Source: Selaginella moellendorffii
Taxonomy: Eukaryota; Plantae; Lycopodiophyta
DNA: 64,000 bases
NCBI RefSeq assembly: GCF_000143415.4
Contig: NW_003314348.1
Span: forward strand, 288,085-352,084
Direction: 5' to 3'
The notes beneath the pieces are model-generated. The model was not told where the DNA came from. It ran no database searches and saw only the letters and a list, made by a program, of their open reading frames with translations. A program made the position numbers and the translations under genes. Each line of letters begins with the position of its first letter. Positions within the stretch are counted from its first letter, which is position 1. Positions 6,651 through 58,627 of this stretch are shown piece by piece.

Positions 6651-7570
6651 TGTCGCGAATGTGACTTCGGGTATCGAAAGATACTTGTCGACCGGTCCTT
6701 ACGGATACTCTTTCCTTACTGCCATGACGGCAGGAGATCGGTACAGTTGGATCCCTTTAGTAGCCCCTCTTGTGCTAGTGGAGTTAACTGGGCATTCCGA
6801 GTGTACTTAGACCGGACGAGCATAAGGACGGAATTCCTACGTGCTATTAGCCAAGCATACTTAGCCCGGTAAGGAGTTCCCGTCTCGTTATGTCTTGCAC
6901 TGGCTAGTGACAAGAACCCTCGCGTATTGAGACTAGTCCCTCAATATCGCTGGATGATAGCTTACCGTGTCTGCCAAACACCCTCGCTATCACACCCTTT
7001 GTGTTGGTCTCATTTCGGTCCCAAATGCTATTTATGGAAAGTGTCTAGATTAGCTTATTTGGCATATCTACGGAATGTAGAGATCGGCCTGAATACAATG
7101 GTGTTTGTCCCGTGTCCAAATTCGCAATCTAAGGACATTCCATATTTAGTAAGTTTCGAGCTTGTCCCAGAGACTAACTCCTGGTACTAAGGGAGGCTTG
7201 GGGTGAAAGCCCAAAGCGTGTGTTCCTCAAGGGGGGGGGGGGCTATGGGGGGTTCCAAATGTATAGTAGGGATAGTGGTTGGATGCATGTCCGACCACCT
7301 GAGACATTAGTTTGGCTCCCGCTGGGCTGTGTCGCTCCTTGTTCTGCGTCCGGCTTGGGTCTAAGCCCAAGCTCCACGCTGCTCTAGTCGGTGGAGTACC
7401 CTCCTTCTCGCATTAGGCCACCGGTATGCCAAAATTGTGCCAGACTCCGTCTGACACCATTTTGCGTGCAGGTGCTGGATACGGGGAGCTGGTGCTCGTG
7501 GGATTGTACCGGACCCTCGTTTCATAGCGCAACGGGCTTGGAGTTCGGCTCCAAATTCAGGTGCGCTACA
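6651..7570 (+). repeat. 5' LTR of element A (920 bp)
   Basis: TGTCGCG...GCGCTACA; near-identical to 13099-14021. Confidence 0.96.
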
Positions 7571-7572
7571 TT

Positions 7573-7583
7573 TGGTATCAGAG
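7573..7583 (+). promoter_or_regulatory. Primer binding site of A (tRNA-iMet)
   Basis: TGGTATCAGAG, 2 nt after the LTR end. Confidence 0.92.
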
Positions 7584-7743
7584 AAATTGTCTTAGCGATT
7601 TCTATCCAACTTTTGTCGGATTTTCTGACTCAAGTTGCATACGCAGAGACTTTTCTAGTAGATCCGAAGCGACCTGTGTAGGATTAGTTGGATTGCACCA
7701 TTCGGTAAGAACGTTGTATGCATGTTCAGTTACTGATAGAGGC

Positions 7744-10700
7744 ATGCATGCAGCTAGCAGGATGGTGAAGAGGAACCGTGCTGATGACACCGAAACCTCT
7801 AGACGGGCGAATCGAGAGGAGGAAACTCCTGCTAGAGATGCTGCGGAAGGGGCTGAGGCCGAGTCAGAAGAGGAAGAGCCAGATGCTGCAGCATTGCAGC
7901 GTACGGCTCAGGAAGTTGAGATCGAGAATTTGCGAAGGGAGATTCGCAAATTGAAGAAGGAGAACAAGAAAAGGAAGAAAGAAGCTGAGGCAGCTAAACC
8001 AGCTAAGCCTAAGCAACCGGACTCCTCTTCAAGTTCTGAGGACGATGAAGTTCTGCAGCCGCCCCCGGTTGCACGAGTTTCAAAGTTCAAGCCTCCGAAA
8101 CCACCCAATTTCAGAGGCATGCGGGACTATCAGGTTTTGGAAGACTGGGTCTACGATATGGAGAACTACTTCATAGCGGCAGACGTAGATGATCGTACGA
8201 AAGTTGCGTGCGCGCAATCCTTTCTCACCGATCATGCCAAAACTTGGTGGCGCCAGGTGTGTGCTGAAAAAGGGCAGACTAGAAGTTGGACCAAGATGCG
8301 GTCTCGTATCCGTAAGGAATACTTGCCGGATGATCTTGGTCTGAGACTTCGCGCAGAGCTGCGACGGTTAAAGCAGCGAGGGGACCTTATGCATTATGTT
8401 AATGCGTTTGCTCAGAAGCGCATTATGATTGCAAATATGAGTGACGAAGATGCTCGGAGTTATTTCCTGGAGGGTTTAAGTTCACTTTCTCGAAATGAGA
8501 TTTTGAAGTTTAAGCCGAAGACGTACCTGGAGTGTAAAGAGGCAGCACAGCAAGTTGCCTTTAGTCACTCGCTCATAGAACAATATCAGCAATCGTATGC
8601 TGGTAATTCGGACAAGAATAAAAATTCTGGGAATAGGCAAGGTGATCGGAAACAAAGGGTGGAAAGTAGGTACTGCCCTGGGGGCTCACAAGCTACGGTG
8701 AATAAAGGTGGTGGTGGTTGGAGACCACCAGCAGCTTCTTCTGGTCCTAGGCCCTCTGTTCCTCCTCCTAGTGGGTACAAGCAGCAGCAACCTACAAAAC
8801 CTGCTCCTAGCGGAACGGGTAGTGTGGGTCATTGCTTCCATTGTGGAGAGTCGGGACATAGGTCCTCGGAATGTCCCAACAAGCATAAGACAAGGTCTCG
8901 GGTTAATGTCATGAGGGAAGACGGTGGTGGTGAAGCCGAAGGGGTTGACGAGTTGGTCAATGCAGACTATGAGGAAGAAGAGGTGAGTAACTTTCGTTGC
9001 TTTCCTCAAGCTTTTCTTGCAGTCAATGCAAACACTGATCCGTTAATGTATCTGGTAGGCTTTGTCCGTGGACACCGAATCCGAGTGATGATTGACACGG
9101 GAGCTACGCACAGTGTGATATCCGAAGACTTAGTTAAGTTGTTAGGATTGAATGCTGAGCAAATGTCGCCTATGCACTTCCGGTTTGCGGAAGGTGGGCA
9201 AGTAGCCAGAAAGTTTGTGAGTGATGTTCCAATAAAGATATCCAAGTGGAAAGAAAGAGTGGACTTGGTAGTGTTGAAGATACCAGATTTTCAGATGGTG
9301 TTTGGTATGGATTTCTTCAACAAGTATATAAAAGGGATTTATGGTGCTGGACAAAGTCGTATCACGTTGAAGTCAGAAGGACATCCTGATGTATCCTTTC
9401 AGTTGCAAAAGCGTTCCTCAAAGGATTGGGATGCAAAGTTCCTGACTGTGAGGGCCGCTCAAAAAGCAGCTAAAAGGGGATGTCAGACCTTTTGGGTTCA
9501 AGTGATGGAAGCTGAGGGTGTGGGTGACTCAGTACAAATCGGCGACGGGGTTGATCCTGTACCGAAAAGGATATTGGAGTTGTTGGCGAGGAATCAGGAT
9601 ATCTTTCCGAAGGATTTGCCGCCAGGGCTACCTCCTAGCCGTGAGGTTGATCATCGGATTGAGATTATTCCGGGTTCTAAACCACCTACGAAAGCTCCAT
9701 ATCGGTTGAACATCAAGGAGATGGCTGAACTCAAGAAGCAACTCACGGAGCTTCTTGACAAAGGTCATATCCGACCAAGCAAGTCACCTTATGGAGCGCC
9801 GGTCCTCTTCGTTATGAAAAAGGATGGAACTATGAGGATGTGTATTGACTATCGGGCACTCAATAAGATCACGGTTAAAAACAGTTATCCTTTGCCTCGC
9901 ATTGATGACTTGTTTGACCAACTCTTAAAGGCTAAGTATTTTACGCGACTTGATTTGCGGTCCGGATATCATCAGATACGGGTGGCGGATCAGGATGTGG
10001 AGAAGACAGCCTTTAAGACTCGGTACGGATCTTATGAGTTCCTTGTCATGCCATTCGGGTTATGCAATGCTCCGGCAACGTTCAGCACTATGATGGATAG
10101 AATATTCGGAGATTATTTGGATGCATTTGTTGTCCTGTATATCGATGATGTTCTAGTCTTTAGTGAAATGTTGGAGGATCATTTGAAACACTTGGAGCTG
10201 GTGTTTCAGAAACTGCGCGAACACAAACTGTATGCTAAGGAAAGTAAATGCGCTTTTGGTCAATTGCGCGTAAACTTTCTTGGACATATAGTTGGTGGTG
10301 GCGTGATTGAGGTCGATCCAAAGAAGGTGGAAGCGGTGAAGTCCTGGGAAGTTCCGACCACTGTATCAGATGTTCGTTCCTTTCTCGGTTTGGCGGGATA
10401 CTATCGCAAGTTTGTCCGCAATTTTGCAAGAATTGCTCTTCCGTTGACTGAGTTGACGAAGAGTAGTATTCCGTTTCATTGGACACCAGCTTGCCAGCGT
10501 GCTTTTGCACGGTTGAAGGAGATCTTGACTACGGTTCCTGTTCTCAGGATCCCAGATCTTGATAAACCCTTCGAAGTGCATTGTGATGCATCTGGCTATG
10601 CTATTGGTGCCGTGTTGCAGCAAGATTGTGACAAAGCGGTTGGTGTTATGCTAAGGCGACATGGTTGTCCCGTTGCGTTCTATTCCAAGAAATTGGATGA

Positions 10701-12486
10701 GACCCAACGAAGATGGCCAACGCATGAGAAAGAGATGTTTGCTATAGTGTCGGCCCTGGAACACTGGAGACACTACTTGGGTGGACATACCAAGGTTTAT
10801 ACAGATAGTAACACACTAAGCTACTTCGCTACGCAGCCTAAGCTTACGCCGAAGCAGGCTCGTTGGCAAGAGAAGCTTGCTAGATATGATATTGAAATCA
10901 TATATAAACCTGGTAAAGACAATATTGTTCCGGATGCGTTGAGTCGTCAAGCTCAGTTCCGGGCAATATCGGCAATCAGTTCAGACTGGTTGAAGGACGT
11001 TCGGGCTTCGTATGGAAGTGATCCATTGGCGAAGGCAATCTTATGCCGTGCGGGGTTGTTGAAACAGAGCCCTGGTAGCGAAGCAGCAAAAGTTGCTAGT
11101 CGCACTAATGCGAAGCTTCACTTCTCAGTTCGGGATGGGCTTATATTCTATAAGCAAGAAAGATTGTATCTTCCCTCTAAGGATCTTCAGCAGTTATTTC
11201 TGCGGGAACATCACAATGTTCCAGCAGCGGGACATGGTGGACAGCGAAAGACTCTGGCTTCATTGAAAAAGGGATTTTTCTGGTCTGGTATGGAAGATGA
11301 TGTAGCGGACTATGTCCGTTCCTGTCCTGTATGCCAGCAATGTAAGCGCAGAACTGAGAAACAGGCTGGAAAGTTGCAGTGCATTCCAGCACCGGCATGG
11401 CCATTTCAAAGTGTGACACTTGATTTCGTCACTTGCTTGCCGAAGTCTAAGGGTTATGATACTTTGATGGTGGTTGTGGATCGGTTGTCAAAGATTGCAC
11501 ACTTCATTCCAACTGTGGGAACAGTAAATGCGAAACAAGCAGCAAAGCTCTTTTTCCATGAAGTAGTGCGAGTTCGTGGTCTCCCTAAAGAAATGATCTC
11601 AGATAGAGATTCGAGGTTTACGGGGAAGTTTTGGGGGACCCTATTCCAGTTGTTTGGTACCAAGTTGAAGTTTAGTACAGCTTACCATCCTCAAACCGAT
11701 GGGCAGACCGAACGCGTGAATGCTCAAGTTGAGGATTATCTGCGGTACTATGTCGCGGCGGACCAACGCGACTGGGTTGAGCATTTGGATACGGCAGAAA
11801 TTTGTTATAACAACACATTTCACAGCGCTATAGGCTGTTCTCCATGGGAGATGTTGCAAGGGAATGCTCGTGGGGTTCCTCAACAGATCGTTGTCCCAAA
11901 ACCAATGACCGAGGTGTTGGTCCCAGCCGTGGAAACTTATGCGGAGCAGCTATGCCAAGGTTGGTCTAAAGCTACTGAGGCGATGGGCAAAGCTCAGGAT
12001 AGGTATCGACGTGATAAGGATCAGCATCGTCGGGATGTATCCTATCAAGTGGGAGATCAGGTGTGGCTATCTTCCCGAAACTTGAACATTAAGGGTTCTT
12101 TGTCTCGGAAGCTCTTGCCGAGATATGTTGGACCCTATCGGGTGCTAAAACGCATTGGTGATGTATCCTATCGGTTGGATCTTCCTGCGGAGATGTCCAA
12201 TGTTCATAATGTATTTCATGCCAATCTATTGGCTCCTTACACTATGGATGTTGCGCGTCAAGGGGAGATTCGTCCACCCCCAGACGTTGTGGACGGTGAA
12301 CCTGAATACGAAGTAGAAACTATCTTGGATTCCCGGTTCCGGAGACGGGCTCGTGTGAAGGAATATTTAGTTAAGTGGAAAGGTTACCCATCTTGTGAAT
12401 CAACTTGGGAGCCTCTTAGTCATCTTACACATGCTCGTGAGCTTGTCACGGAGTATGAGACTCGTAATAAAGATTCACTTTTGTAA
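7744..12486 (+). CDS. Gag-Pol polyprotein (Gag, CCHC knuckle, aspartic protease, RT, RNase H, integrase, chromodomain)
   Basis: ORF 7561-12486; first in-frame ATG at 7744 (alternative 7762). Motifs in Ty3/gypsy order: [34 protein letters not shown]...H...[32 protein letters not shown]...YLVKWKGY...STWEP. Confidence 0.97.
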
Positions 12487-13085
12487 ATCTTGTAATCAAT
12501 CTTGCAAATTAATAAAGTAATATATTTCTATCAATCAAAAGTGTCGTTTCTCTCGATCAATTGTACTTGGGTCAGTTTTGGCAGGCTGACTTCGGCACTT
12601 CGGTGCATGGGTCCAATCCATAACCATGGGGATACCTATTATAGACTGATCACAAGTCCCCGCCTCTCTCTCGATGACTCCTTTTCAAAAAAAAAAAAAA
12701 AAAGGGGCGTGGTCGTGTAAACAACTTAATCTGCCAGTTTATAATAGTTGTCTAAATCTTCCCGACGGGGTTGATTTCTTGCTCAGGGGCAGTTGGGCCT
12801 CTGGCCTTCTCCCTATATCCCTACGGGCAGGGATGTATCATTCCTTTGTAAGCTGAGTGGTACTCAGAGCAGCAAGGGTGGCTAACTCCGTTGGTCATTT
12901 CCTTGTCGGCGACGGCCGGAGGGTGTCTGAGTCTTAACGTCTTTGGACATAGAGGAGAGGTCGTTCCATAACTCATTTAAGTCGGTGTGTTTCCCACATA
13001 GTGTGCTTTCCGTTAACTTTCGGAGTTGTTTCCTTGACGGTTTGCTAGACTCGGGTATGCATCGACGAGGACGTCGATCTTCCCC

Positions 13086-13098
13086 AAGGGGGGGAGAG
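13086..13098 (+). promoter_or_regulatory. Polypurine tract of A
   Basis: AAGGGGGGGAGAG immediately before the 3' LTR. Confidence 0.92.
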
Positions 13099-14021
13099 TG
13101 TCGCGAATGTGACTTCGAGTATCGAAAGATACTTGTCGACCGGTCCTTACGGATACTCTTTCCTTACTGCCATGACGGCAGGAGATCGGTACAGTTGGAT
13201 CCCTTTAGTAGCCCCTCTTGTGCTAGTGGAGTTAACTGGGCATTCCGAGTGTACTTAGACCGGACGAGCATAAGGACGGAATTCCTACGTGCTATTAGCT
13301 AAGCATACTTAGCCCGGTAAGGAGTTCCCGTCTCGTTATGTCTTGCACTGGCTAGTGACAAGAACCCTCGCGTATTGAGACTAGTCCCTCAATATCGCTG
13401 GATGATAGCTTACCGTGTCTGCCAAACACCCTCGCTATCACGCCCTTTGTGTTGGTCTCATTTCGGTCCCAAATGCTATTTATGGAAAGTGTCTAGATTA
13501 GCTTATTTGGCATATCTACGGAATGTAGAGATCGGCCTGAACACAATGGTGTTTGTCCCGTGTCCAAATTCGCAATCTAAGGACATTCCATATTTAGTAA
13601 GTTTCGAGCTTGTCCCAGAGACTAACTCCTGGTACTAAGGGAGGCTTGGGGTGAAAGCCCAAAGCGTGTGTTCCTCAAGGGGGGGGGGGGGGGCTATGGG
13701 GGGTTCCAAATGTATAGTAGGGATAGTGGTTGGATGCATGTCCGACCACCTGAGACATTAGTTTGGCTCCCGCTGGGCTGTGTCGCTCCTTGTTCTGCGT
13801 CCGGCTTGGGTCTAAGCCCAAGCTCCACGCTGCTCTAGTCGGTGGAGTACCCTCCTTCTCGCATTAGGCCACCGGTATGCCAAAATTGTGCCAGACTCCG
13901 TCTGACACCATTTTGCGTGCAGGTGCTGGATACGGGGAGCTGGTGCTCGTGGGATTGTACCGGACCCTCGTTTCGTAGCGCAACGGGCTTGGAGTTCGGC
14001 TCCAAATTCAGGTGCGCTACA
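13099..14021 (+). repeat. 3' LTR of element A (923 bp)
   Basis: Differs from the 5' LTR by about 5 transitions and a G-run 3 nt longer. Confidence 0.96.
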
Positions 14022-17441: not shown

Positions 17442-18065
17442 CAGAGATGGAGTCCGAGATGGATTGAGATGGAGTCCGAGATGGACCCGAGATGGAGTCC
17501 GAAGTCGAGACCAAGACCAAGACCGAGACCGGGACCAAGACCCAGACCGGGACTAAGACCGAGACCGAGACCAAGACCAAGACCGGGACTGAGGCCGGTA
17601 CCAAGACCGAGACCGGGACCGAGGCCGGGACCGAGTCCGAGCCCAGTCCCAGTCCGAGTCTGAGTCTGAGTCCGAGTCCAAGTTCGAGTCTGAGAGGGTA
17701 AAAGCCCAAAGCGTTCGTCTCCCAGACCCTGGGGGGTTTGGTGAGCTCCAAAAGAAAAGTATAATAGGGAGAGGATTGCAGTGGAGCCAATTTGGCCAGG
17801 AAAGGCTAGTTTGGCCTAGAAAGGCTGTACCCAGTGTTGGGTGATGAGCTCCCTGTAAGCTTCTGAGTTTGGAGTTCCCAAGAAGTCACCCATCCCAATA
17901 CTATTCAAACCCAAGGATGCTTAACCCCAAATATCCCAAAACCCTTAACCAGGGGGTGCACTTTTATTCATGGGCCCTTTCCCTCTATATTTGAACCCTA
18001 TGGACCGTCTCTCAAGTCATTCTCTTTGGTTGCTTACAATCCACCACGCTTCCCTACAAGTTCAT

Positions 18066-18739
18066 TATAGCACACCTTATCTCTCTCCCCTTAATCTAAC
18101 TGGAAAAGGGGCAATTGCTTGATGAGAGAGCCCTTAGTGGCTATTTTATCCCCATTTATCCCCCAAGGTTCCAAGGATCCACGGTGACAGTATATCCAAA
18201 TCTCATCCCATGATCACATGCGTTACACTCACCCCCCCTTCAGAGATGTCAATGTCCTCATTGACTATTGACTAACAACCCCTACTGAGCCAAGGGGAAC
18301 CAGCACCTCCATTTTCGCACTCAATCTACCAATCCTTCCATTGTGTAGACCAACTATTCCATGTGAGGCAACTAGTCATCCACCCGTACCGCAGTCCCAC
18401 GGTGGATACCTTCGTCCGTGGATACTCCACACAAGAGGAAGGACGTACGCATGGATGCCCAATACGTACGATTTCAAATTTAGGGGTAGGAATATACCTT
18501 GCTCAAGGGTATATTATACTTTTAAGTAGCCACTAATCAATGGGAATCGAACCTGTGCCATTTGCTCTAATACCAACTATAGCGCACCTTATCTCTCTCC
18601 CCTTAAGCCAACTGGAAAAGGGGCAATTGCTTGATGAGAGAGCCCTTAGTGGCTATTTTATCCCCATTTATCCCCCAAGGTTCCAAGGATCCACGGTGAT
18701 AGTATATCCAAATCTCATCCCATGATCACATGTGCTACA
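18066..18739 (-). mobile_element. TRIM D (674 bp), nested in Cassandra
   Basis: 162-bp LTRs at 18066-18227 and 18578-18739. TSD TTCAT at 18061-18065 and 18740-18744. PBS rev-comp TGGTATTAGAGC; PPT rev-comp GAAGGGGGGGTGAG. Confidence 0.92.
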
Positions 18740-18939
18740 TTCATGCCCTCGTGAACAGAAGCTGAGAGCCACAACTCTCCCGAGAGCCCCGCTCTCTTGA
18801 CATCCTACCCCTCAGGTTGAGCCCAGTGGGAGCAAACTTGACCAGCCAGATGTCAGTCAACATGTGGTGTGATTCCCTTAGCCAACCAACAGAGTCGGAC
18901 CTAAGACCCCTCTAATACCAAATGTAAGCTCTTGAGTTT

Positions 18940-18994
18940 GGACTTCCCAGGAGGTCACTCATCCTAGTACTATTCAAACCCAAGAATGCTTAAC
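18940..18994 (-). promoter_or_regulatory. 5S rRNA-derived Pol III internal promoter region (A box/IE/C box) in the Cassandra LTR
   Basis: Minus strand GTTAAGCATTCTTGGGTTTGAATAGTACTAGGATGAGTGACCTCCTGGGAAGTCC matches the plant 5S rRNA as I recall it at 48/55 positions. A more diverged copy lies at ~17871-17925 and a partial copy at ~21150-21187. Confidence 0.9.
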
Positions 18995-19602
18995 CCCAAG
19001 TATCCCAAGACCGTTAACCGATTGGAAAAGGGGGTGCACTCTTATTCACTGGCCCTTCCCTCTATATTTGAACCCCATGGACCGTCTCTCAAGTCGTTCT
19101 CTTTGGTTGCTTACACTGCCCACTAGGAAATCCAAGACTAGAGTGAACATGGACCGACAAGTAGGGTAGTTTGGTGAAGTGTTCAAGAGCCGGCTCTAGT
19201 TCCCTCGGGAGATCGACTGGCCGATGCTCCTAGTCCAAGTGTGGGTGGCACTACCTACTTGGATACCTGGCATGGCTCAACGGAACCTCGCTTTAAGCCC
19301 ATGGCTAGAGCACCCGAAGGCGGAAGGCAGAGAGAGTACCCATGAGGCTCACGTAAGGCTGCGGTGTTCCGAAATATTGCCCCAAAGTCCTAGACTGTGA
19401 AAAGGAGGAGGAGCCGTCCTCTAGTGTAGAGACTAAGGATACAGTCATGTGAGGAGATAGTCCCAGAGGACCGAGGCACTTAGTGGTCGGGCTTGTGGGC
19501 CTTGATCTAGTGGTAGTGTTGGTGAACACGGCCATGAACAGAAAGGGACTTGGTGGGGACTGGAAAAGGGATATTGGGGAAGGCTAACCCCCATGTCTGT
19601 GG

Positions 19603-20092
19603 TTGCAGATGCTGGCAGTGCAGAAGGTGTGGACCCTTCGGCAGGGACTGAGGCAAAACCAGACAAAGTCAAACAGACCGAAGTGGAATCAGTCCCTCAG
19701 GCAATTCCCAAGTACAAACCAAAGCCCCCACTGGTCTTCAAGGGAGTGAACGACTATAAGGTGGTGGAGGATTGGTTTTACGATATGGAGGACTACTTCC
19801 GAGCGTTGCGGTTACCGAGCTCAGAGAAGGTCCCATGTGCAAAACCATACTTGGCAGATAATGCCAAGTGTTGGTGGAGAATGACAGAGGCCAACGAAGG
19901 ACTGGTGGCCACTTGGGAAATGATGAAGGCGAGGATCCGCACGACTTACGTTCCTCCGAATGCTACCCTGCATCTAAGGGACGAGCTGAGTAGCCTGAAG
20001 CAGACCGAAACCATTCAGGAGTATGTGAATGGGTTTATGGCAAAGAGGATACTTGTTATGGACATGGGGGATATGGATGCGTTCCATGCCTT
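19603..20092 (+). pseudogene. Gag fragment of chromovirus family E
   Basis: PKPPLVFKG...EDWFYDMEDYF...AKCWW is homologous to the Gag of A. The 3' part is nearly identical to 21524-21711. Both ends are deletion junctions. Confidence 0.88.
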
Positions 20093-20094
20093 AA

Positions 20095-20831
20095 GGCTGT
20101 AGGGGGTTCCAAAAGTATAGTAGGGATAGTGAGGTCCAAGAACCAGTCTTGAAGGAACTCTCCAGTGGTGCTTCCAAACTGACTTGAAGTTGAGACTGGG
20201 GCCAAGAGGCCTTGTGTGGGAGTGAGCATGGGCTTGGGTGGTGACGGAGTGGCCACCCAGGGAAGTGCTCAAGAGCAGCTCCCACTCCCGAAAGGGAAAC
20301 CGACTGCGGTGCTCCCGGCTCATGTGGAGTGGTGCCCCACTTGAGTACCTTGTGGCTCATTGGTCCTCGCCCTTCCTAGGGGCTTGGGCCTTCCTTTCGG
20401 GATGGAAGTGGGGGGGTAGAGGTACCCATACCGGGCTGTTAGGCCATAGTGTTTCGCTTTGACATCCCGAAGCAAGTGTTGCACCCAAGGCTTGGGATTT
20501 AGAGGGTCCCATGAACAAGTCTTGTTGTACCAAGGGGTGTTAGGAACCTGGAGGCTTGGTGTGCTTGGCTGCTTGTGCCTGTGGGGAGTGTAGCCGAACC
20601 TTAAATCCAGTCTAACCCGGGGAGGGGGATTGAGAGAGATTTGGGAATCTGTAGATGGATAGCTAACACTCCGTTGCTCATGCAGTGAGTAGCTAAAACC
20701 AAGTAGGACCAAGTAGGAGCTGGTACAATAGGCGGGAACCTTGGCGAGGGAACTTAGCACAAGCCAAGGTAGTGTTGGTCGGATAGGCGAGGTAAGTTTG
20801 CAAATTGAAAAGGAAAAATTTGTGGCTTACA
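20095..20831 (+). repeat. 5'-truncated LTR of family E
   Basis: Colinear with 26522-27258. Ends GGCTTACA, followed by a PBS. Confidence 0.92.
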
Positions 20832-21205
20832 TTTGGTATCGGAATGGTCTTGGGTCCGACTCTATTGGTTGGTTAGGGGAATCACACCACATGTTGATTG
20901 ACATCTGGCTGGTCCAGTTTGCTCCCACTGGGCTCCACCCGAGGGGTAGGGTGTCAAGAGAGCGAGGCTCTCGGGAGAGTTGCGGCTCTCAACTTCCGTT
21001 CACTAGGGCGTGAACTTGCAGGGAAGCGTGGTGGATTGTAAGCAATCAAAGGGAACGACTCGAGAGACGATCCATGGGGTTCAAATTTAGAGGGAAAGGG
21101 CCCATGAACAAGAGTGCACCCCCTTTTCCAATCGGTTAAGGGTCTTGGCTTTGAATAGTACTGGGTTGGGTGACCTCCCGGGAAGTCTAAACTCAGGAGC
21201 TTACA
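20832..21205 (+). mobile_element. Single Cassandra unit (PBS, internal region, PPT, one LTR at 21037-21205) fused between the E LTR and the E internal region
   Basis: Reverse complement of the internal region and LTR of the Cassandra at 17854-19115. No second Cassandra LTR and no TSD. Followed directly by a second PBS and E gag. Confidence 0.92.
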
Positions 21206-24200
21206 TTTGGTATCGGAGCCTTTTCCTCAGTTCTAGCGAAGGATAGGGGCAGATTGCTGGGAGATGGCAAAGGCAGGGCGTAAGTGAACCCAGGTAGAGA
21301 CGGAACCTCCGCCAGAGCTGGAGCCTTCGGTCGAACAAGAGGCTATGGATGAGGAATCCTTGCATGAGGAGGACTCCAGTGAGGAAACTTCCAAACAGGA
21401 GTCTAATGGCGAGGTTCCGTCGTCCAAGGCTCAATTGGACGTTCTAGAAGGCCAATTAGCGCAGACCAATGCCCTGCTGGAGACTCTCGTACGCAAGCTA
21501 AAGCGTGACGAGAAGTGGAAGAAGTGGCCACTTGGGAAATGATGAAGGCGAGGATCCGCATGACTTACGTTCCTCCGAATGCTACCCTACATCTAAGGGA
21601 CGAGCTGAGTAGCCTGAAGCAGACCGGAACCATTCAGGAGTATGTGAATGGGTTTATGGCAAAGAGGATACTTGTCATGGACATGGGGGATATGGATGCG
21701 TTCCATGCCTTCATATCAGGTTTGCAAACCTGGGCTCGTGGTGAGGTGATGCGGTGGAACCCGACCAACTACAAGGAAGCGTTGGATGTGGCCATCAAGG
21801 TGCATTTCAACAATAACCTGCGAAAGGGGAACACGACGGGGTCGGGATCCATGTTTAGCAAAGGGGCCAAACCAAGGGGAACGTATAGCAGGGAGAAATT
21901 TAAGAAGAGTTTCTCTAAGAATGAGTCCTCAGGGTTCCGGAAAGGCAAATCCGGTAGCCAGCGAGTGAGTACGTGGGGGAGTCAAGCGAAAAGAGAAAAA
22001 CCCACGGATAAGAAGGTCAAGTCGTATAGCAGCGTGGGAAACAATGTATGCTACAATTGCGGTGAAGCGGGACACTTTTCGAGAGAATGTCCCTACCCGA
22101 AGAAGGCCAGAGCCAATATGGCCATCAAGTCGGGTGAAGTCCAAACTGAGGTATGTGATCCAGTCCCTAACTCAAAGTTACTCATTACACGAGCAACTTT
22201 GGTAGAGAGTCGTTCGCAACATCTACTAGCCCTCCGAGGGAAACTCAGAGGTAGCTTTTTTAAGATCCATATTGACACAGGTGCTTTGGATAATTTTGTG
22301 GCTGCAGACATAGTTCGGCAAGCCGGACTAATGGTGTAGCAGCTAGGTGAACCAAAGACTATAGAGTTTGTTCAAGGTAGCCAAAGCACCAATGAGGTAC
22401 TTCGACAAGCGAGAGTCGAAGTAGGGACATGGAAAGTAGACATGGATTTCACCGTGTTGGACATGGCGGGATTTGACATGATCTTCGGAATGGATTGGTT
22501 CAATCGGTTCGTGGTAGCCCTGCATGGACAAGGTAGGAACCTTGTGGTATTGGCAAATGCCCAAGGAAGAAGATCTAGGGTGGAGGCCTAGGATCTAAAG
22601 GTAGGGCAAAGCAAGGCCAAAGATTCCTACTTAAACCTGGTGTCCATAAGAGGACAACTCACTAAAGGAACTAAGGCAGCCTTTTTGTGCTTACTCTCGG
22701 TGAAAAGCGACAAAAAAACAGGAACGGAAGAAGTACCTTTAGTGATTCAGCGGGTGTTGGACCAATTCCAGAATACCATGCCAGAGGAGCTACCGGCGGG
22801 GTTGCCCCCCGCACGACCGATAGAACATAAGATTGATCTGGTCGAGGGTGCTGAGGTGGTGGTTCGTCCCCCCTATTGTTTGAACGAAAAAGAACTCAAG
22901 GAGCTCAAGTGCCAACTAGAGGAGTTGGTGGACAAAGGGTATATTAGGTTAAGCAAGTCGCCATATGGGGCACCGGTGTTATTTGTGAAAAAGAAAGATG
23001 GATCTATGCGCATGTGCATAGACTACCGGTTGCTCAACAAGTATACAAAGAAGAATAAATACCCTTTGCCAAGAATTGAGGACCTGTTTGATAGGTTGGG
23101 AAAGGCAAAATACTTCTCGAGGATTGACCTCAGGTCAGGATACTACCAGATCAGGGTAGCAGAGGAAGATGTCGAGAAGACAACCTGTCGAACCAGGTAT
23201 GGGAGCTTTGAGTTTCTGGTGATGCCCTTCGGGCTATGCAATGCGCCGGCAACGTTTTTGGCACTGGTGAACCACGTCTTCGTACCCTATCTGGATCACT
23301 TTGTGGTCATCTATATCGACGACATCCTGATCTATAGCAAGATGCTAGAGAAGCATGCCGAACACTTGGCAAAAGTGTTTGAGAAAATAAGGGAACACAA
23401 ACTGTATGCTAAAGAGAGCAAATGTGACTTTGCTCAACAAGAGGTAAAGTTTCTCAGGCATGTGGTGGGCCAAGACGGGCTCAAGGTGGACTCGGAGAAG
23501 GTCCAAGCGATCTAGGAATGGGAGCGACCATCGAATGTACATGAGTTGAGGGCGTTCTTGGGGCTATGCAACTACTACCGAAAGTTTATCAGACACTATT
23601 CGAGAGTAACCCTACCCTTAACGGACCAAACAGAAAAAGGGAAGATGGTATGGACAGCGGAATGCGAGGTGGCATTCGTCCACCTCAAAGGGAAGTTGAG
23701 GAAGGCTCCCGTATTGGCATTACCAGACTTTGGTAAGGACTTTGAGGTAGAAACGGATGCTTTGGACTTTGCATTGGGCGCAGTTTTGAAGCAAGACAAC
23801 CATCTAGTAGCGTTCTTCTCGAAGAAGTTGGACAAAGCTTAAAGGAAGTGGCCTGCCCACGAGAAGGAATTGTTTGCGGTGGTCAAGGCACTCAAGGAGT
23901 GGCAACACTACCTTGGGAGACACTTCAAGGTTTACATGGACAATGTGGCAACGAAACACTTTTTGTCACAACCCGACCTGAGAGGGAAACAGGGTCGGTG
24001 GGCCAATGCCTTGGTCGAGTTTGATTGTGAGATTCTGTACAAGCCTGGGAAGAGCAACATCATGGTAGATGCACTGAGTCGAAAAGCGAGCTTGAAGTTG
24101 GCGATATCTAGTGCGACAGCAACCTTTTGGGACGATGTGCGGAAAGCATATGAGAACGATGGTCTAGCACAAGAAGTGTTGCTGAGGAATCTAGAGGCAT

Positions 24201-24824
24201 GGGAAGCTCACCAGAGAGGTGGGCTGCCAACGGAAGAGAAAACGGGCTATGCAGAATGCAACAGACTCATCTATTACAAGGAAACAAGGGTGTATGTGCT
24301 AGAAAGGGAACTAAGGAAGGTAACCTTAGAAGAGTGTCATGACGGACCTCTTGCAGGACACAGCGGAGTGCCCAAGACGATGGGCTTACTCAAGAGGAAG
24401 TACCATTGGCCAGATATGGCTAAGGACGTCCAAAACTATGTAAAGACATGTCCAACATGTCAGCAGGTCAAAGCTGTGACTAAGGCTAGTGGGGCCTTGT
24501 TGCAAAGCATCCCAATTCCAGATCGTCAGTGGAAATGTCTTATGATGGACTTCATCACGGGACTCCCCCCAAGCGAGGGGTTTGATGCGATATTCGTGGT
24601 GGTGGACCGATTTTCGAAAATGGCACATTTCATACTCACCACAACGGAAGTGGATGCGGAAGGTGTGGTGAAGCTGTTCTTCGAACAAGTGGTTCGAGTG
24701 CGGGGAAGGCCGGAAGAGATTATCTCAGATCGAGATAAGATCTTCACTAGTAGGTTCTAGAGGACTCTCTTGGAACAGTATCGCACCAAGTTGAAATTCA
24801 GCACAACCTATCACCCACAGACAG

Positions 24825-24871
24825 GTATTGGGTATTAAGTCAAGTTTGATGGCACTAACACTTCTTGACAG
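24825..24871 (+). other. Putative spliceosomal intron 1 (47 nt) in E integrase
   Basis: GTATTG...CACTAAC...TTGACAG; removal restores [12 protein letters not shown] exactly. Confidence 0.78.
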
Positions 24872-25289
24872 ACGGACAAACGGAAAGGGTGAATAGGCAG
24901 CTGGAGGATTATTTGTGATGCTATGTCTCGGGAGACTAGACCAATTGGGTAAGTCATTTGGGACTTGCGAAAATGTGTTATAACAACTCACCACATTCGA
25001 GTATCGGGGTGAGTCCATGGGAAGTCATCAATGGGCGAGCTAATGAAGGTCCTGTGGAACTCGGTGTGGCCGAGTATCATGGAGAGCTACCCGCGGTGGA
25101 GGCATTCACGACAGAAAGATTCAACATTTGGAATCTAGTGAGGGATTCCGTGGAATGGGCTCAACAAAGGTAGACCAAGTACGCGAACTAGAAGTGCCGG
25201 GACGTAGAGTTCCAAGCTGGGGAGAAGGTGTGGCTAAACACCAAGAACCTCAGGCTACCAAGTGGGATCAGTCGAAAGTTGACCCAAAG

Positions 25290-25341
25290 GTAAAAATGCA
25301 TGTATTCCTGTAAATGAATTGATCTTGAGTTCCTTAAGCAG
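25290..25341 (+). other. Putative spliceosomal intron 2 (52 nt) in E integrase
   Basis: AG|GTAAAA...AAGCAG|GT; removal restores KLTQR-FAGPY exactly. Confidence 0.78.
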
Positions 25342-26115
25342 GTTCGCGGGGCCTTATGAGATTGAGGCACGAATCGGTAAAGTGGCTTACTAACTCCAAC
25401 TTCCTTGAGAGATGGGGAAGATGCACCCAGTGTTCCACGTGAACTTACTCAAGCCGTACTTTGAGGATCCGCTTTGCAAGGACCAAGTAAGACCTTTACC
25501 TGAGGTCATCCAAGGGGAAGAGGAATACGAAGTCGAGGCCATCCTCAATGCGCGTAAGAGCAAGCGACAAGGATGCGAGGTGAGAGAGTTCCATGTGAAG
25601 TGGAAAGGATTTCCACACTGCGAAGCAACATGGGAATCAGAGGAGAACCTAGCGATCTAGTGGAGGAATTTCTGCAAGGTAGAACTCTATGTACTTATGC
25701 AAAGTTCAATTAAAGTATCAATTTGTAAAGTTGAGCAATGGCATATGTTGGGACCCGAAGGCGCACCGAAGGTAAGCTAATTAGTATGGGTTAGCTAGGT
25801 CAACCAGGCATTAGGGCACTACGCTCGACTCCCCGTGGGGATGTCGAATCCGTAGACGTATTCTATGGAGGTTGGGTTCGAGTCCCAACCCCCTAGTAAA
25901 GCAAGGCTAGGTTCAAGTCCCGACCCCATACTAGGGCGTGGTGAGGTGAGGGGTATAGGGACACCTATACTCCGTTGGCATGGGCTCTTGGCCGGGGAGG
26001 CTAACTTAGGCACACCGCTAAGTGGGGGGATGCCCCCGGAGACATGGTCAACAAGTTGTAGGATAAAAAGAGACGTTCGATGTGGGCATCGAACTTCTTC
26101 GATTGGTGGTGGAAT

Positions 26116-27258
26116 TGTAAGGAACCGACTCACTGAAGTGTCGTAGGCTAAAGGATCCCCAAAAGCATGACCGAAATGACAAAGAGTTCATTGGATGGGA
26201 CCGAGTCGAAGATCGAGTCCAAGACCAACTCTGAGACCGAGTTCGAGATAGAGTCCGGGATCGAGTCTGAGGTCGAATCGGAGACCGACTTCGAGACCGA
26301 CTTCGAGACAGAGTCTGAGATCCAAATCGGGTCTGAGACCAAGTCTGAGGTCGAGTCTGAGGTTGAGTCCGAGATTGGGTCCAAGATCGAGTCCGAGATC
26401 GAGTCCGAGACCGAGTTCGAAGTCGGGTCCGAGATCAAGTCCGAGATCGAATCTGAGACTAAGTCCAAATACTAATATGGGTCAAGGGGTGAAAGCCCAA
26501 AGTGTGCGTCTCCTAGGGGGGGGCTGTAGGGGGTTCCAAAAGTATAGTAGGGATAGTGAGGTCCAGGAATCAGTCTTGAAGGAACTCTCCAGTGGTGCTT
26601 CCAAACTGACTTGAGGTTGAGACTGGGGCCAAGGGGCCTTGGGTGGGAGTGAGCATGGGCTTGGGTGGTGCCGGAGTGGCCACCCAGGGAAGTGCTCAAG
26701 AGCAGCTCCCACTCCCGAAAGGGAAACCGACTGCGGTGCTCCTGGTTCATGTGGAGTGGTGCCCCACTTGAGTACCTTGTGGCTCATTGGTCCTCGCCCT
26801 TCTTAGGGGCTTGGGCCTTCCCTTCGGGATGGAAGTGGGGGGGTAGAGGTACCCATACTGGGCTGTTAGGCCACGGTGTTTCGCCCCGACGTCCCGAAGT
26901 AAGTGCTGCACCCAAGGCTTGGGATTTAGAGGGTCCCATGAACAAGTCTTGTTGTACCAAGGGGTGTTAGGAACATGGAGGCTTGGTGTGCTTGGCTACT
27001 TGTGCCTGCGGGGAGTGTAGCCGAACCTTAAGTCTAGTCTAACCCGGGGAGGGGGATTGGGAGAGATTTGGGAATCCGTAGATGAATGGCTAACACTCCG
27101 TTGCTCGTGCAATGAATAGTTGAAACCAAGTAGGACCAAGTAGGAGCTGGTACAATAGGTGGGAACCTTGGCGAGGGAACTTAGCACAAGCCAAGGTAGT
27201 GTTGGTCGGATAGACGAGGTAAGCTTGCAAATTGGAAAGGAAAAATTTGTGGCTTACA
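26116..27258 (+). repeat. 3' LTR of element E (1143 bp), with a 6-mer-periodic GAGTCC/GAGATC array at ~26200-26468
   Basis: TGTAAGG...GGCTTACA, preceded by TTGGTGGTGGAAT. The right flank is family B internal sequence. Confidence 0.92.
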
Positions 27259-30200
27259 GGTAATAGATAAGGCCCAAGGGACTAAGTCCTTAGCGAATGA
27301 TGGATAGAAGGTGCTATCCAAATGTCCAAGGTTGCAAAAACGGGAGAAGTCCGTCTACCCGAATTGAACAAAGCCAAAAATGGAATTTTGGCAGAGCTAG
27401 TGATGGGCATATAATGGCCCATATATAGCAATATTAATCTTGGTGTATGCGATTATAAAGTGAGCATACCCGGATTGAGGAACTACTCCCTAGGCTATCG
27501 GGTAGGTTCATCCCCAAGAATATTTGCTAAGGCATGGTAGAAAGTGCAAAGCTATCCTCCTGGTCTAGGGCCGAAAGAAACATGTGAGGGCAAAAGGCAA
27601 GTAGTAAAGGGATAGAACTAAACTATAAGAAGCGAAGGGCATAACCTAGGGTGGTTATGCAAGGTGGGAGTGGAGAATCAAATGGGTGCTTGAGTGTGTT
27701 ACTACTAGCAACCGTGATGCTATGGAGAGTCTAAAGTATAGAATTGTCCATGCTAGACCATATGGCAATTGAAAAGCTTGCGAAAGGAGAGGCCCTAACA
27801 AACTAAGGGATAGAGTTCCTTCAAGGTTCCCAAAGATAATTCTAGCTAATGTAGTACTTAGAAAGCCAAGTGTAAATGGTTCATAAAATGTGCAAAATCA
27901 AAGTGGCACAGCAAAAGTGTGTTCTTAAAGTTTGCTATAAGGAAATGCTATCAAGGTTAGGGAAGTAATTCCCGAGTGTTCAAAGGGATGACTTTGAATG
28001 AATGTCGATGGTCAAGGACTTTCACGCTTATGCATGAAACCATGTTACATTGGTTGGATGACTTGTTAAGCGAGAGTGGCAAGTCAGGGGAACAAATCCC
28101 CTAGTTGAAGGTGCTAACTTCAAAAGGGGTGGCCTATAGGGCCGAGCATAGAGGAGTTCATGCATGATCACAGACTTGTCAAGTGAGAGGACTTGGCAGT
28201 GCAGAGCAACTAGGTTCCTAAGCTGTGATCTATAGCCCGCTTTAAGTACATGTTGGTGCACTAGCGTGGGGAGTCACGCTAGGCATCCAGGGTGATGCCG
28301 TCTGTAGATGCATATACGGAGGTTAGGTTCGAGTCCCAACCTTCTAATGCTTGGGTTCGAGTCCCAAATCACTAGGGCGTGGTGATGGTTTGGAATATGA
28401 GGACACTTATATTTCGGTGGACATATACTCTCAATGAGTAGATTGGCTTGGGCACACCGCCAAGCGGGGGATGCCCCGGAGTCGTGATGCACGATTAAAT
28501 TGCTTAGTGTGGCTCGGCATATCTAACTTGAACATTTGGTGCGAGTGGCACCAAGGACGTGGTGAATGAGATGGGGACACCCAGTCTTAATTGCTATAGA
28601 CCCTTAGCTGGAAGGGCTAGCTTGGGTGCACCGCCAAGTGTGGAGGATGTTCCTGGGGTAATGGTGAACAACTTAAAAGTCTGGAAGACCTAATGCCTAT
28701 TGACAAACCTGTTAAGGTGCCAAGGTGTGATCACTAGGTGATCTTATGGCTAAAACAAGGATAAAGTCCTTGTGAGGTTAAGGGATAAAGTTCCTAATTC
28801 ATAATGTTAGTTTGAACTATTGATGATGGTGTGGCTTGGTCAAGGTGACCAAGTGGGAAGAACACCTAAAGGAAATCATTTGTGACTATGCGATGTCATA
28901 GTGAGTCCGAAGAAAGTAGTCTCGATGCGAGTAGTCCTGAGTGAGTAGATGCGTGGAATGGTTTGATGGTGAACAGGGAATTTGAGAGAGAAGAAATCCC
29001 ACGACTGTGGCAAAAGTGGATCGCGCTAGGAGTGGAGGCGGACCAGGTGATTGACAACACTGTGGCGTTCTGGAAACTACCGATCCAAGAAAAATCAAAG
29101 GTAACCTCTTGGCTCGTGGTGACGAATGGGCTGCCAGTAGGCCAGCGGTTTCAAGCGGAGAATGCTTGCAGGTGTTCGGACTGTGGGGAACTGGAGACGG
29201 TCACACACATCCTCTGGGATTGTGACGTGGCCAAGGAGACGTGGCGGCAGGTAGCAAAAGCGACGAGGGAACTAGGGGACAAGCAGGACTTCAAAATTCG
29301 AGAAGGGGATGTCACCCAATGGTTTCCAGAGACAAGGGGACCATGCACAGGAGCAGCTTGGCGGAGGATCTGGTGTTGGGGACGCTCAGGATGGGGCACT
29401 CAAGTTAGGTGGGATGCGGTAGGTGCCGAAGTTGGGACCACAGTGTGGGAGGCCCTTGGACGGGAGAGATGGGAGGTATGGCGGGCTTCCAGGGTACAGG
29501 CACTTTGGGAGGCTCGGAACCGCAACCACTTCGAAGGGCAGTGCAGTCGGATTTCAGCAATCATGGCAAATTGGTGGAGGCTCACACTGGCTGCTATCCG
29601 CTTGAGGGATACGCTGCTTCAGGAGCATGGAAAAAATAGGGAGGCGCTCACAGCTTGGCGACGACTATGGACTCCGTGCTACGGAACTGAACACAAGGGA
29701 GAGGTCAAGTGGAAATGGAGACCTTCGGACACGGTAACAAAGGAGGCTCGACGTGGCAATCTGGCACTGGATGCACTGCGGAGGCAACGACCACAGCAGC
29801 CACGATTGGAGGGCAGCGGTCACTATTAGGTGGAGAATTGCAGGACAGCGTAGTTGAGTGAACAGCACTAAGGGATCCTTTGTTTTTTGTATCAGTCCCT
29901 AAGGGACTTGGAGAAATGTACATACATGTTGCACCGAAGAAAGTAGTCTCTATATAAGAGACCATGGGAGGGTCACAAAGTTGGGCCAGGGATAGAGCCC
30001 ACAATAGAAAATCCTAAAGAGATGTATTAGGGGTGAACACCTTCTGGACTTCTGGATACCTCGAGAATAAAGGTAGTGATACAATATTGCTAGGTGCAAC
30101 AATCAAGGATAGGAGCAAAAGACTAGTGGCTAAAAAAAGAGCCATGGGAATCATGGGAAAGAATCCAAAACGCAAAGTTATGCCAAGAACACTATTGTTT

Positions 30201-54139: not shown

Positions 54140-55774
54140 CTATATGCTTCGATTCTGTAGCTGCAAAAGCCTGTAGGCCCTGCTCGCAGCGTAATTTCCC
54201 AGCTTGAGCTCCTGTTGTAGCTTGCAAGCACCAGCCAAAGTGCTCCATGCAACATCGTTGGGAAAGAATGGCATGTTGTTGATCAGTTCATCGGCCTGAC
54301 TGAGCTCCCCCGACCTCGCAAGTATGTCCACCATGCAAGCATAATGCTCCGCCGCGGGAGTCAATCCAAACTGCGATACCATGCTTGTGAAGCACCACCA
54401 GCTGATCTTTACAAGCCCCGCATGGCTGCACGCGATGATTACGCCCAGAAATGATACCTGGTTCGCCTTGAATCCTTGCACGACCATATCCAGCAGCAAC
54501 TCCACACACTCGTGGACGCATCCAATGCGCGCAAACGCTGCGATGAGCGAGTTCCACGACAGCAAATCTCTGCCAGGCATCCTCTCGAACACCCGCTTGG
54601 AGGAGCTCGGCTGGCCGTTCAAAGCATACATGGCCAGCACGGAGTTCCACGACGCCACCTGAGAGTGCGGCATTTGCGTGAGGATCCTCACGGCGTCCTC
54701 GACGTAGCCGCTCTGGCCAAAGACCACAATTATCGAGTTCCACGACACGGAGCTTCGCGCGGGCATCGTGTCGAAAGTCAACTTCGCCTCCTCGACCCGG
54801 CACTGCTGACCATATATTCGAATGAGCACCGTCCATGAGACGACGTCCTTCTCGGGCATGGCATCAAAGATTCTCTTGGCCTGGCGGAGATGCCCGTTTT
54901 GGGCGTAAGCAGCAATCAAGGTGTTCCATGACACGGCATTCCACTCGGGCATCCTGTCGAAAGTCCGCTGTGCTTGCTGCAAGTAGCCGGACTGCCCGTA
55001 TGCGTCCACCATGGCTGTCCAGGAAATGATGTTCCTCTCGGGCATCCCCGCAAAGAGCCTCTTGGCCGCCTCCAGCTCGCCATTCAAGACGTAAGCCTGA
55101 AAGAGAGCGTTCCACGACGCGGTGTTGTGCTCCGGCATCCTGTGGAACAAGCGCTCGGCCTGGCGGAGCTCCGAGTTCTCGCCATATCCCGAGATCATGG
55201 AATTCCACGAGACCAAGCTCAAGAAAGGCATCTTGACAAACAGCCCCACAGCTTCATTTAAATGCCCGTTTTGGGCAAATGCTGCAACCATAGCGGACCA
55301 TGCTACAAGATTTCTCTCCGGCATTTCGTCGAAAACCATCTTTGCTTCTATCAAATAGTTGCTTTGTGCAAAAGCTACAAGCATGCTCGTCCACGACACG
55401 ACGTTTCTCTCGGGCATGGCTTGGAAGAGTTTTCTCGCTTCCTCGACATGCCCGTTCCGGGCATATGCTTGGATCATGATGCTCCAGCTGAAAACGTTGG
55501 GGTCCCGGATGCTGGCAAAGATCCTCTGGGCCTCCTCGACGCTTCCGCAGTCGCCATACATCTGGACAAGGATATTTGCCACGAATCTATCGTCCCGGAA
55601 CTCGCTGTCCAGAATGCGCGAGTGGAGAAGCCTTGCCTGCGTTAGATCACCCACCTCGCGCACCAGACGCTCGATCAAATCGCGACGCTCCTGCCGCCGC
55701 TGCTGGATTTGGGTTCCCAGTCGCTCTCGCGGCTCCGATCCGTGTCGACACAGCGGATCGGCGCAAAGATTCAT
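54140..55774 (-). CDS. PLS-class pentatricopeptide repeat protein with partial E domain
   Basis: Intronless ORF with ~31-aa repeats (F..MPERNVVSW..M...YAQNG), then FLGVIIACSHAG, EHYACMVDILARSG and MPFFPNDVAWSTLAGAC. No DYW domain. First ATG at 55774. Confidence 0.93.
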   Translation of the reverse strand: MNLCADPLCRHGSEPRERLGTQIQQRRQERRDLIERLVREVGDLTQARLLHSRILDSEFRDDRFVANILVQMYGDCGSVEEAQRIFASIRDPNVFSWSIMIQAYARNGHVEEARKLFQAMPERNVVSWTSMLVAFAQSNYLIEAKMVFDEMPERNLVAWSAMVAAFAQNGHLNEAVGLFVKMPFLSLVSWNSMISGYGENSELRQAERLFHRMPEHNTASWNALFQAYVLNGELEAAKRLFAGMPERNIISWTAMVDAYGQSGYLQQAQRTFDRMPEWNAVSWNTLIAAYAQNGHLRQAKRIFDAMPEKDVVSWTVLIRIYGQQCRVEEAKLTFDTMPARSSVSWNSIIVVFGQSGYVEDAVRILTQMPHSQVASWNSVLAMYALNGQPSSSKRVFERMPGRDLLSWNSLIAAFARIGCVHECVELLLDMVVQGFKANQVSFLGVIIACSHAGLVKISWWCFTSMVSQFGLTPAAEHYACMVDILARSGELSQADELINNMPFFPNDVAWSTLAGACKLQQELKLGNYAASRAYRLLQLQNRSI

Positions 55775-56863
55775 TCCATACAAGTTTTTCTTCTTTTGTG
55801 ATTTGGCAAAACTACCAGTGTCTGCAAGTTTTCAAGAGGACCACTTCATTCTCTTTCGAATATTACAACAAACAATGATCTTAGGTGATTCTCTACTTGA
55901 TTATTGGAAAACCAAAGCATCATCCTTCTCTCTTTTTCTCTCTCTTTTTTCTTTCATAGAAGAAACCATTTTCACGAAGGAAAATGGGGATCATGCATTG
56001 CCGCTAGATAAACCCAAAGGATCGAATCATTGTCAACGGGAGCGAGCTAAAGAAAGAACTCATCCACTTTGCGTGGCAAACTTATTTGCTTTCTTTTTTT
56101 TCGTGCTCCCGTTTCTCGAAACAGTACGGAGATTCGAATGGAAGAATCAAAAGTTGACTCTTGCGAGTGAGGGCGCTTAACAATAATTTGATTGCGGTTT
56201 GCTTAATTCCGGGACTTGCATTTTAAATCCTCGCAAAAGACACACATCCCATCTCATTTGTACACGGTACAACAAAAACACACACCCAAACACACTCTCT
56301 CTCTCGTAGTTCCCCTTACATTCTTTTAGCGCTTTAGTTCTCTTCTCTGGGGTGATCTTTGTCTTGCGGCTTGCCCTTCCAAAAATCGCAAGCTTGCGCG
56401 CCCACTTCGATGATCCAGCAGTACGCAAGCGCTGGCTCTAGAAGCTCGTCAGCAGCAGCAGCGCGCTTTGCCGGGGATGATCCTCTTCTTCCTAGTGATC
56501 ATGCGGCTTCCTTTGGATGAGATCCATGTCACAGCTTTCTCGATCACGATCCCACCACTACTTGCTCCCCACAGATCCCAAGATATGAGCAGGAAGAACA
56601 CCACCACCGCCACCACTGCCGTGCTACAATCGAGTTCGAGGGGCGACAAAGTTTCCTCTTCTATCCGAAAGTCTCGGTTTTGATCCACTCGTCGATCCAT
56701 CCATGGCTTTGTGTATCAGTCACCTCCAGTCCAGAGCAGTACTGAGTGATACTTCGATTTGATATCACTTACACATCTTGGGAGTGATCTTGATCCATAG
56801 GAGAGGAAAGGAAGTAAACAAGCGAGAAGGGGGAACGGTCGACTATCAAATTACTCCCCCGGA

Positions 56864-58281: not shown

Positions 58282-58340
<59 letters not shown>

Positions 58341-58627
58341 TCCGTGTGATTGGTTTTCATCGTTTCTCTTTTTGGAAACAGGACCGGATGAACAATCGAA
58401 GATCAAGCCCCGACTCTACTGACGATGACGACGATGATGATGGCAGTAACTTATCACTGTCACTAACAAGTTCCCCCGCTGGCATGAAGAACAAGGCAAA
58501 GCGGCGAAACGGGAAATACATTCGCAGGGGCAGCAGCAGCACTAGTAGCGGGCAGCCGGATCAAAATCGCGGGGAGCCGGTCATAAGATTGGATCTCACG
58601 CTCTCCATCGCCCACAAATCACCGTGA
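56864..58627 (+). CDS. GARP/G2-like (SHAQKYF-class) MYB transcription factor with EAR-like motifs
   Basis: Exons 56864-57191, 57314-57390, 57456-57495, 57596-57794, 57889-58273 and 58382-58627 splice in frame to VRQYVRSKMPRLRWTPDLH...[30 protein letters not shown]. C-terminal LSLSL and LDLTL motifs. Confidence 0.92.
58288..58339. repeat. (CT)n(CA)n compound microsatellite in the last intron of the GARP gene
   Basis: Directly visible. Confidence 0.95.

Follow-up and report, generated by a model that had tools for sequence, protein, structure and literature searches.

The window (the whole stretch of DNA analysed here, 64,000 nucleotides from Selaginella moellendorffii) contains a chromovirus, element E, in which the integrase gene is interrupted by two short intron-like insertions. 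Loss of introns is classically taken as the signature of retrotransposition, and reporter assays rely on it (PMC12786077, in the sections available). This locus raises the question of whether these insertions are spliced, and of how a retrotransposon could keep them.

Structure of element E

The features of element E are summarized in Table 1. Element E has the LTR pair, PBS, PPT and order gag-PR-RT-RH-IN of a Ty3/gypsy chromovirus. It has a chromodomain at the C-terminus of integrase, which is joined to integrase only once both introns are removed. Exon 1 gives Pfam matches to zf-CCHC, Retrotrans_gag, RVT_1, RT_RNaseH, Integrase_H2C2 and rve, and PR is placed by motif, with no Pfam match behind this placement. 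The region from 21509 to 24824 is one frame with five point stops, and the Pfam matches of gag, RNase H and integrase, as well as RT, are in this frame. Exon 3 gives matches to SH3_Tf2-1 (E 7e-15, profile positions 24-63 of 64) and Chromo PF00385 (E 4e-13).

Table 1. Coordinates of element E, its introns and the sister element A in the window
Feature	Position	Strand	Description
5' LTR	20098..20831	+	734 nt, TG..CA
First PBS-like site	20834..20843	+	
Second PBS-like site	21208..21220	+	13 nt
Exon 1	21264..24824	+	gag, PR, RT, RNase H, integrase zinc finger and core to HPQT
Intron 1	24825..24871	+	47 nt, GT..CAG, GC 0.383
Exon 2	24872..25289	+	catalytic Glu of D(35)E at 24883-24885, remaining core, linker, start of SH3
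Intron 2	25290..25341	+	52 nt, GT..CAG, GC 0.327
Exon 3	25342..25713	+	remainder of SH3/GPY-F (25343-25459), chromodomain (25526-25651)
Polypurine tract (G run)	26515..26523	+	
3' LTR	26525..27258	+	
Element A	6651..14021	+	intact single-ORF sister chromovirus, neither intron

The two LTRs differ at 37 of 733 positions, 34 of which are transitions. Gag in exon 1 has a deletion of ~300 nt near 21505-21523, and exon 3 has 10 nt fewer than other copies near 25653. To judge from the point stops in pol, the gag deletion and the LTRs 5% apart, this copy is evidently dead. The first PBS-like site is a motif that we take to be of the tRNA-Met type. The two PBS-like sites in 20832-21220 are ~370 nt apart, and an LTR-end-like TTACA also precedes the second one; portions of this leader are repeated on the minus strand at 17854-19115. 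The presence of two such sites could bear on two RNA pools. A gag fragment (19506-20092) is located directly upstream of the 5' LTR, and its part at 19905-20092 is 98% identical to 21524-21711, which suggests a local rearrangement. A 12-nt tandem array, akin to arrays elsewhere in the window, occupies 26190-26470 in the 3' untranslated region.

Sequence features of the two introns

A recount confirms the two insertions described in the earlier note, with their lengths and positions, their GT..CAG ends, their AT-richness and the CTAAC motif of the first one (24855-24859); no such motif is noted in intron 2. The coding DNA flanking the introns has a GC content of 0.48-0.51. The exon frames (codon start mod 3) change from 2 to 1 to 2, as the removal of 47 and then 52 nt demands, and the motifs HPQT/(D)GQTERVN at intron 1 and KLTQ(R)/FAGPY at intron 2 continue when the introns are removed, so that excision restores the frame as claimed. 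Intron 1 splits an Asp codon after base 1, and intron 2 splits an Arg codon after base 2. The 35-residue spacing of D(35)E between the second catalytic Asp and Glu is obtained only across intron 1. Each intron contains an early in-frame TAA upon read-through, at 24836-24838 in intron 1 and immediately, at 25291-25293, in intron 2. Retention of intron 1 truncates integrase before the catalytic Glu, as the earlier note had it, Glu being encoded downstream of this intron.

The U2-type features of the introns are the GT..AG ends, the AT-richness and, in intron 1 only, the branch-like motif CTAAC. Their donors depart from the U2-type consensus at +4/+5. The GACAG duplication previously noticed around intron 1 is present as a 5-nt repeat at its ends, and intron 2 has a 4-nt repeat (AG/GT at both ends). 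The 3' end of intron 2 (25336-25341) contains tandem acceptors (AAG CAG), and the observed joints described below take the distal one. When all 52,144 windows of 44-59 nt in 22340-25660 are inspected, only three start with GTA, end with CAG and have a GC content of 0.39 or less, and two of them are introns 1 and 2; this is a rough chance check, because the filter was chosen after the introns had been seen. Folding of the introns is no better than that of shuffles (z 0.13 each), and no stable hairpin is spanned. Of the terminal inverted repeats that mark introners (introns made by transposons), just a 6-bp stem is seen, in intron 1, and it does not exceed what shuffles give.

The earlier note had also likened the size of the introns to that of host introns in the window (50-56 nt). 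This comparison holds only in part. One minus-strand candidate of ~55 nt agrees with it, but the introns of a G2-like MYB host gene at 56860-58630 (+), which is named by eye from motifs, are 122, 65 and 100 nt long, and the other candidate is ~100 nt, the edges of the candidates being unsettled. The window also contains an intron-less PPR-like host gene at 54140-55831 (−), named in the same way, and a 294-codon frame at 28945-29829 that resembles, by eye, the zinc-finger region at the C-terminus of a non-LTR reverse transcriptase.

Identity of elements E and A

SM1-Galahad of S. moellendorffii has been rebuilt by Novikov et al. (2012) from several of hundreds of copies, which are 95% alike on average. 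It is ~7.5 kb long and contains a 3885-bp ORF without a chromodomain, followed by two short ORFs (316 and 309 bp), with the chromodomain encoded by the second of these; no intact copy was found (PMC3350952, available sections). Element E shares with it the tRNA-Met PBS, which is 13 bp long in SM1-Galahad, the G tracts, and the long ORF followed by two short ORFs. In element E, stops excluded, the long ORF comes to ~3864 bp, as estimated by bridging the gag deletion, and the short ones to 318 and 309 bp. The LTRs of SM1-Galahad are 1076/1146 bp long, whereas that of element E is 734 nt long, or 1107 if counted to the second PBS-like site. Thus, element E matches the SM1-Galahad family by its three-ORF layout and sizes, which is a match of dimensions and not of compared sequences. 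The words 'intron' and 'splic' do not occur in the available text of PMC3350952, in which the ORF breaks are left unexplained. SM1/Galahad gives no match in the supplement of this paper or in five supplementary files of PMC6317226.

Element A is 7371 bp long, with LTRs of 920-923 bp that are 99.1% identical, a 1652-codon stop-to-stop frame and an ORF of 1574-1580 aa, and it sits amid other repeats. By these sizes element A is likely to be a young SM2-Galahad, for which 7353 bp, an LTR of 919 bp and 1577 aa are given (PMC3350952, same sections). It is continuous at both intron sites, in agreement with the earlier note. The RNase H-integrase regions of elements E and A share 47% identity. They pair (94/89, just under the star threshold) in a 50-protein tree composed of the named matches and the first 28 of the 132 unnamed matches at 41.5% identity or more. 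This pair is located inside a 97/89 clade with proteins from Riccia, Cinchona, Escallonia and Citrus, in a tree that includes no labelled Galadriel reference. The clade assigned to SM1-Galahad in the literature is Galadriel (PMC3350952), and some Selaginella chromoviruses have been left unclassified (PMC6317226), as stated in the sections available.

Presence of the introns in genomic copies

The DNA run X1 gives 66,573 contigs on 21300-26700. Records 4 and 6 of this run extend across introns 1 and 2 and differ from the window at 29 of 206 and 33 of 231 letters (~86% identity). Neither skip is found among the 15 best-supported of the 206 joints of X1 (lowest depth 226), and the eight listed records have a depth of 108-146; with the other 191 joints unlisted and some joints uncounted, rare intron-less genomic copies are possible. 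The depth of X1 across the introns is rejected as evidence, because bins of 181 nt, with values from 428,000 to 1,186,000, are too coarse. The presence of the introns in diverged X1 copies, together with the published reconstruction of SM1-Galahad, shows that they are apparently the normal state of the element E family. A repair event unique to the copy in the window is rejected by the diverged DNA contigs, by the layout of SM1-Galahad and by the skips found elsewhere.

Origin of the introns

Because neither sister element A nor the other relatives are interrupted at either site, the introns have likely been gained in the lineage of element E. The site-1 motif is found in 248 of the 282 proteins retrieved, of which 232 are strictly continuous, 15 are continuous but for substitutions and one (P0059) departs from homology; site 2 is continuous in 172 of the 282. 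Although these protein sets favour long open frames, they point to a gain in the lineage of element E. In a metagenome scan of 17 loci, the site-1 motif is uninterrupted in 12, and the other five lack cover or a match; the contig of P0059 is not among the 17. P0059 is an unrelated chromovirus-like protein (42% identical) that departs right after HPQTDG, and its departure residues fit a GT donor one codon after the position of intron 1, so that it could be either another case of an intron in integrase or a chimera. Close family members are not found in the protein searches: the best match of exon 2 is 37% identical among longer proteins, with none among proteins of near length, and the best match of the RNase H-integrase region is 46% identical among longer proteins; among representatives the best match is 45% identical, and none of the searches gives a match above 46%. 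Introns can be gained at short repeats by repair or duplication, and the 5-nt and 4-nt repeats are compatible with such a gain.

Removal of the introns in transcript-like contigs

Four contig sets from four studies (X15, X17, X18 and X20), which are RNA by guess, were aligned to 24449-25858. These four runs have 1-9 contigs each, with a depth of 2-59, against 66,573 contigs in X1; X15, X17, X18 and X20 are therefore not shotgun DNA. Only two joints are detected in these four sets, a 47-nt GT..AG skip (24824/24872) and a 52-nt GT..AG skip (25289/25342), which are exactly the junctions that the earlier note had proposed to search for. The skip of intron 1 is detected in two of the four runs (X15, whose shorter flank is 255 nt, and X17, whose shorter flank is 25 nt), and that of intron 2 is also detected in two (X15 and X20), so that the exact skips come from three studies. 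Both introns are absent from a 1083-nt contig (record 2 of X15), which differs from the window at all six stop codons of exons 2 and 3. Retained forms are found for intron 1 in X17, X18 and X20, and for intron 2 in one X17 contig. In X17, the depth for intron 1 is 10.1 for the skip and 6.3 for the retained form. The doubly spliced X15 and the intron 1-retaining X18 agree at 34 of 34 exon positions among the shared rows listed (49 further rows are unlisted), as expected of isoforms from one subfamily. The contig of X20 is chimeric upstream of 24791, and may therefore stem from read-through of a broken copy. The recorded RNA runs X21-X23, of which ~12% each was covered, give 13, 3 and 1 reads across 5.4 kb, too few either way, and no joint is listed.

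Precise removal in RNA in three studies, the runs being RNA by guess, supports spliceosomal-type behaviour. If a contig with a skip came from an intron-less genomic copy, such a precise loss would most simply arise from spliced RNA. That the skips are produced by template switching between short direct repeats during library preparation, without splicing, is barely credible: both skips do lie on repeats of 4-5 nt, but they are bounded by GT..AG, come from three studies, bring the conserved motifs back together and span no stable hairpin. We conclude that introns 1 and 2 are very probably spliced introns of the whole family. Insertions unique to this copy and never spliced, or a lack of junction reads, had been named beforehand as outcomes speaking against introns; the introns are instead family-wide, and the skips are present in likely-RNA contigs.

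Role of intron 2

The stop in intron 2 is located upstream of the chromodomain, and a single X17 contig still contains this intron. These facts would fit a two-step switch, in which retention of intron 2 yields an active integrase without the chromodomain and with altered target choice, as the earlier note had proposed. Such a switch is highly improbable, because intron 2 splits SH3: SH3_Tf2-1 is cut, leaving only part of its profile to exon 3. The SH3 domain is part of the conserved integrase core and, in the Ty3 intasome, makes contact with the target DNA (PMC8632968, available sections), so that an isoform without the chromodomain is unlikely to be active. In addition, no likely-RNA contig has intron 1 spliced and intron 2 retained, and the sole mixed contig (X20) has the reverse pattern. 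Retention of intron 2 therefore likely gives a crippled integrase, and not an active untargeted one. Of the earlier proposal that unspliced RNA is packaged and splicing acts as a switch, the spliceosomal-type, family-wide introns stand, and the template role of unspliced RNA stands as a deduction, whereas the targeting role of intron 2 does not.

Proposed mechanism

The sequence predicts three kinds of product. Unspliced RNA specifies Gag, PR, RT and RNase H together with a truncated integrase that stops short of the catalytic Glu; if intron 2 alone is retained, integrase is cut off within SH3; and the core, SH3 and the chromodomain are all encoded only when both introns are absent. The explanation that we favour, with somewhat better than even confidence, is that unspliced RNA is reverse-transcribed, while working integrase is made only from doubly spliced mRNA. 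Unspliced RNA would then be the template for reverse transcription, and reverse transcription would have to favour it strongly, because the introns persist in the copies even though spliced forms are not uncommon in the likely-RNA contig sets. Spliced RNA may be barred from reverse transcription by a separate translated pool as in BARE1, by being subgenomic, or by an intronic cis-signal. The introns are located 3.5-4 kb from the 5' end, and thus simple loss of a 5' packaging signal is unlikely unless spliced RNA is subgenomic. Incomplete splicing would keep integrase below Gag in a single-frame element without a frameshift. A requirement for more Gag than Pol has been described (PMC12786077, sections available). 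Intron retention is the commonest type of alternative splicing in the host (42% of events) and affects introns shorter than average (PMC5310277, sections available). In the stronger version of this proposal, two gained introns split the catalytic core and SH3, the family rose to hundreds of copies with both still in place, integrase exists solely as a spliced product, and the element therefore sorts unspliced RNA actively into reverse transcription and rations integrase through host splicing; this version has in our estimate an even chance of being correct. Dosing of integrase by splicing is not obligatory in the clade, because element A has an intact single ORF, 99%-identical LTRs and no intron.

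It is unlikely that the introns are neutral, that is, gained at short repeats by repair or duplication and retained simply because splicing never touches the packaged RNA, and that they do not help to set the level of integrase. The repeats beside the introns, the lack of a special fold and a sister family that manages without introns would fit this, but spliced and retained forms occur side by side and both introns have early in-frame stops, which fits dosing and is no proof of it. A slightly smaller probability is given to the alternative that intron-bearing copies are passengers, with integrase supplied in trans by rare intron-less copies or by a sister family, and that splicing is incidental. 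The unlisted joints of X1 leave room for intron-less DNA copies, Novikov et al. found no intact SM1-Galahad copy, and an intact sister element is present. However, two independent insertions both splice to the exact frame, and the SH3 and chromodomain scores of exons 2-3 exceed the Pfam cut-offs. Transcribed variants differ in intron 1 by three substitutions and a 1-nt gap in 47 nt, while three of the five exon changes found only in X20 are synonymous, in a small sample. The identity between elements E and A, the possible supplier, is also low.

Comparison with known systems

The breaks in SM1-Galahad are already published, but they have not been read as introns in that publication. The literature searched, which includes the available part of PMC2864245 and few subscription papers, and does not include Repbase, contains no intron inside the integrase of an LTR element or in SM1-Galahad. 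The introns account for the 'detached' chromodomain ORF that makes the published SM1-Galahad anomalous, and probably represent two lineage-specific gains inside one retroelement. Families filed as broken may likewise be intact after splicing.

Plant LTR elements are generally without introns, with Ogre and EVD as exceptions, according to a 2025 review (PMC12786077, sections available). Splicing in LTR elements is also known for env and CRR, and for Gag in copia. Ogre (Ty3/gypsy, Tat) has an intron between gag-pro and rt-rh-int, and resembles element E in that the intron is kept in genomic copies, is spliced from a subset of transcripts, and must be spliced for downstream pol. It has, however, a single intron, ~274 bp on average, between domains, which gates all of RT-RH-IN, whereas element E has two introns of ~50 nt inside integrase, which gate integrase alone (PMC6317226, sections available). 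An Ogre-type intron between protease and RT is absent from element E, in which gag to the integrase core is one frame. Introns also survive retrotransposition in Penelope-like elements, but these have neither LTRs nor integrase and use another transposition chemistry (PMC8557442, sections available).

BARE1 (PMC3735527, sections available) and EVD, an Arabidopsis Ty1-copia element (PMC5580714), are single-ORF elements in which splicing balances Gag against Pol, like the proposal for element E. The polarity is reversed in them: spliced RNA gives Gag only and unspliced RNA gives full Pol, and the introns are located in gag/protease of the copia superfamily. In BARE1, translation uses RNA that is capped, polyadenylated and in part spliced, and packaging draws on a distinct uncapped pool. 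The spliced BARE1 RNA is not copied into DNA: amplification of such copies did not succeed (PMC3735527, same sections). The choice between translated and packaged RNA in LTR elements has been worked out mainly for BARE1, and a high-copy family that needs splicing for integrase and yet keeps its introns would provide a natural marker of this choice.
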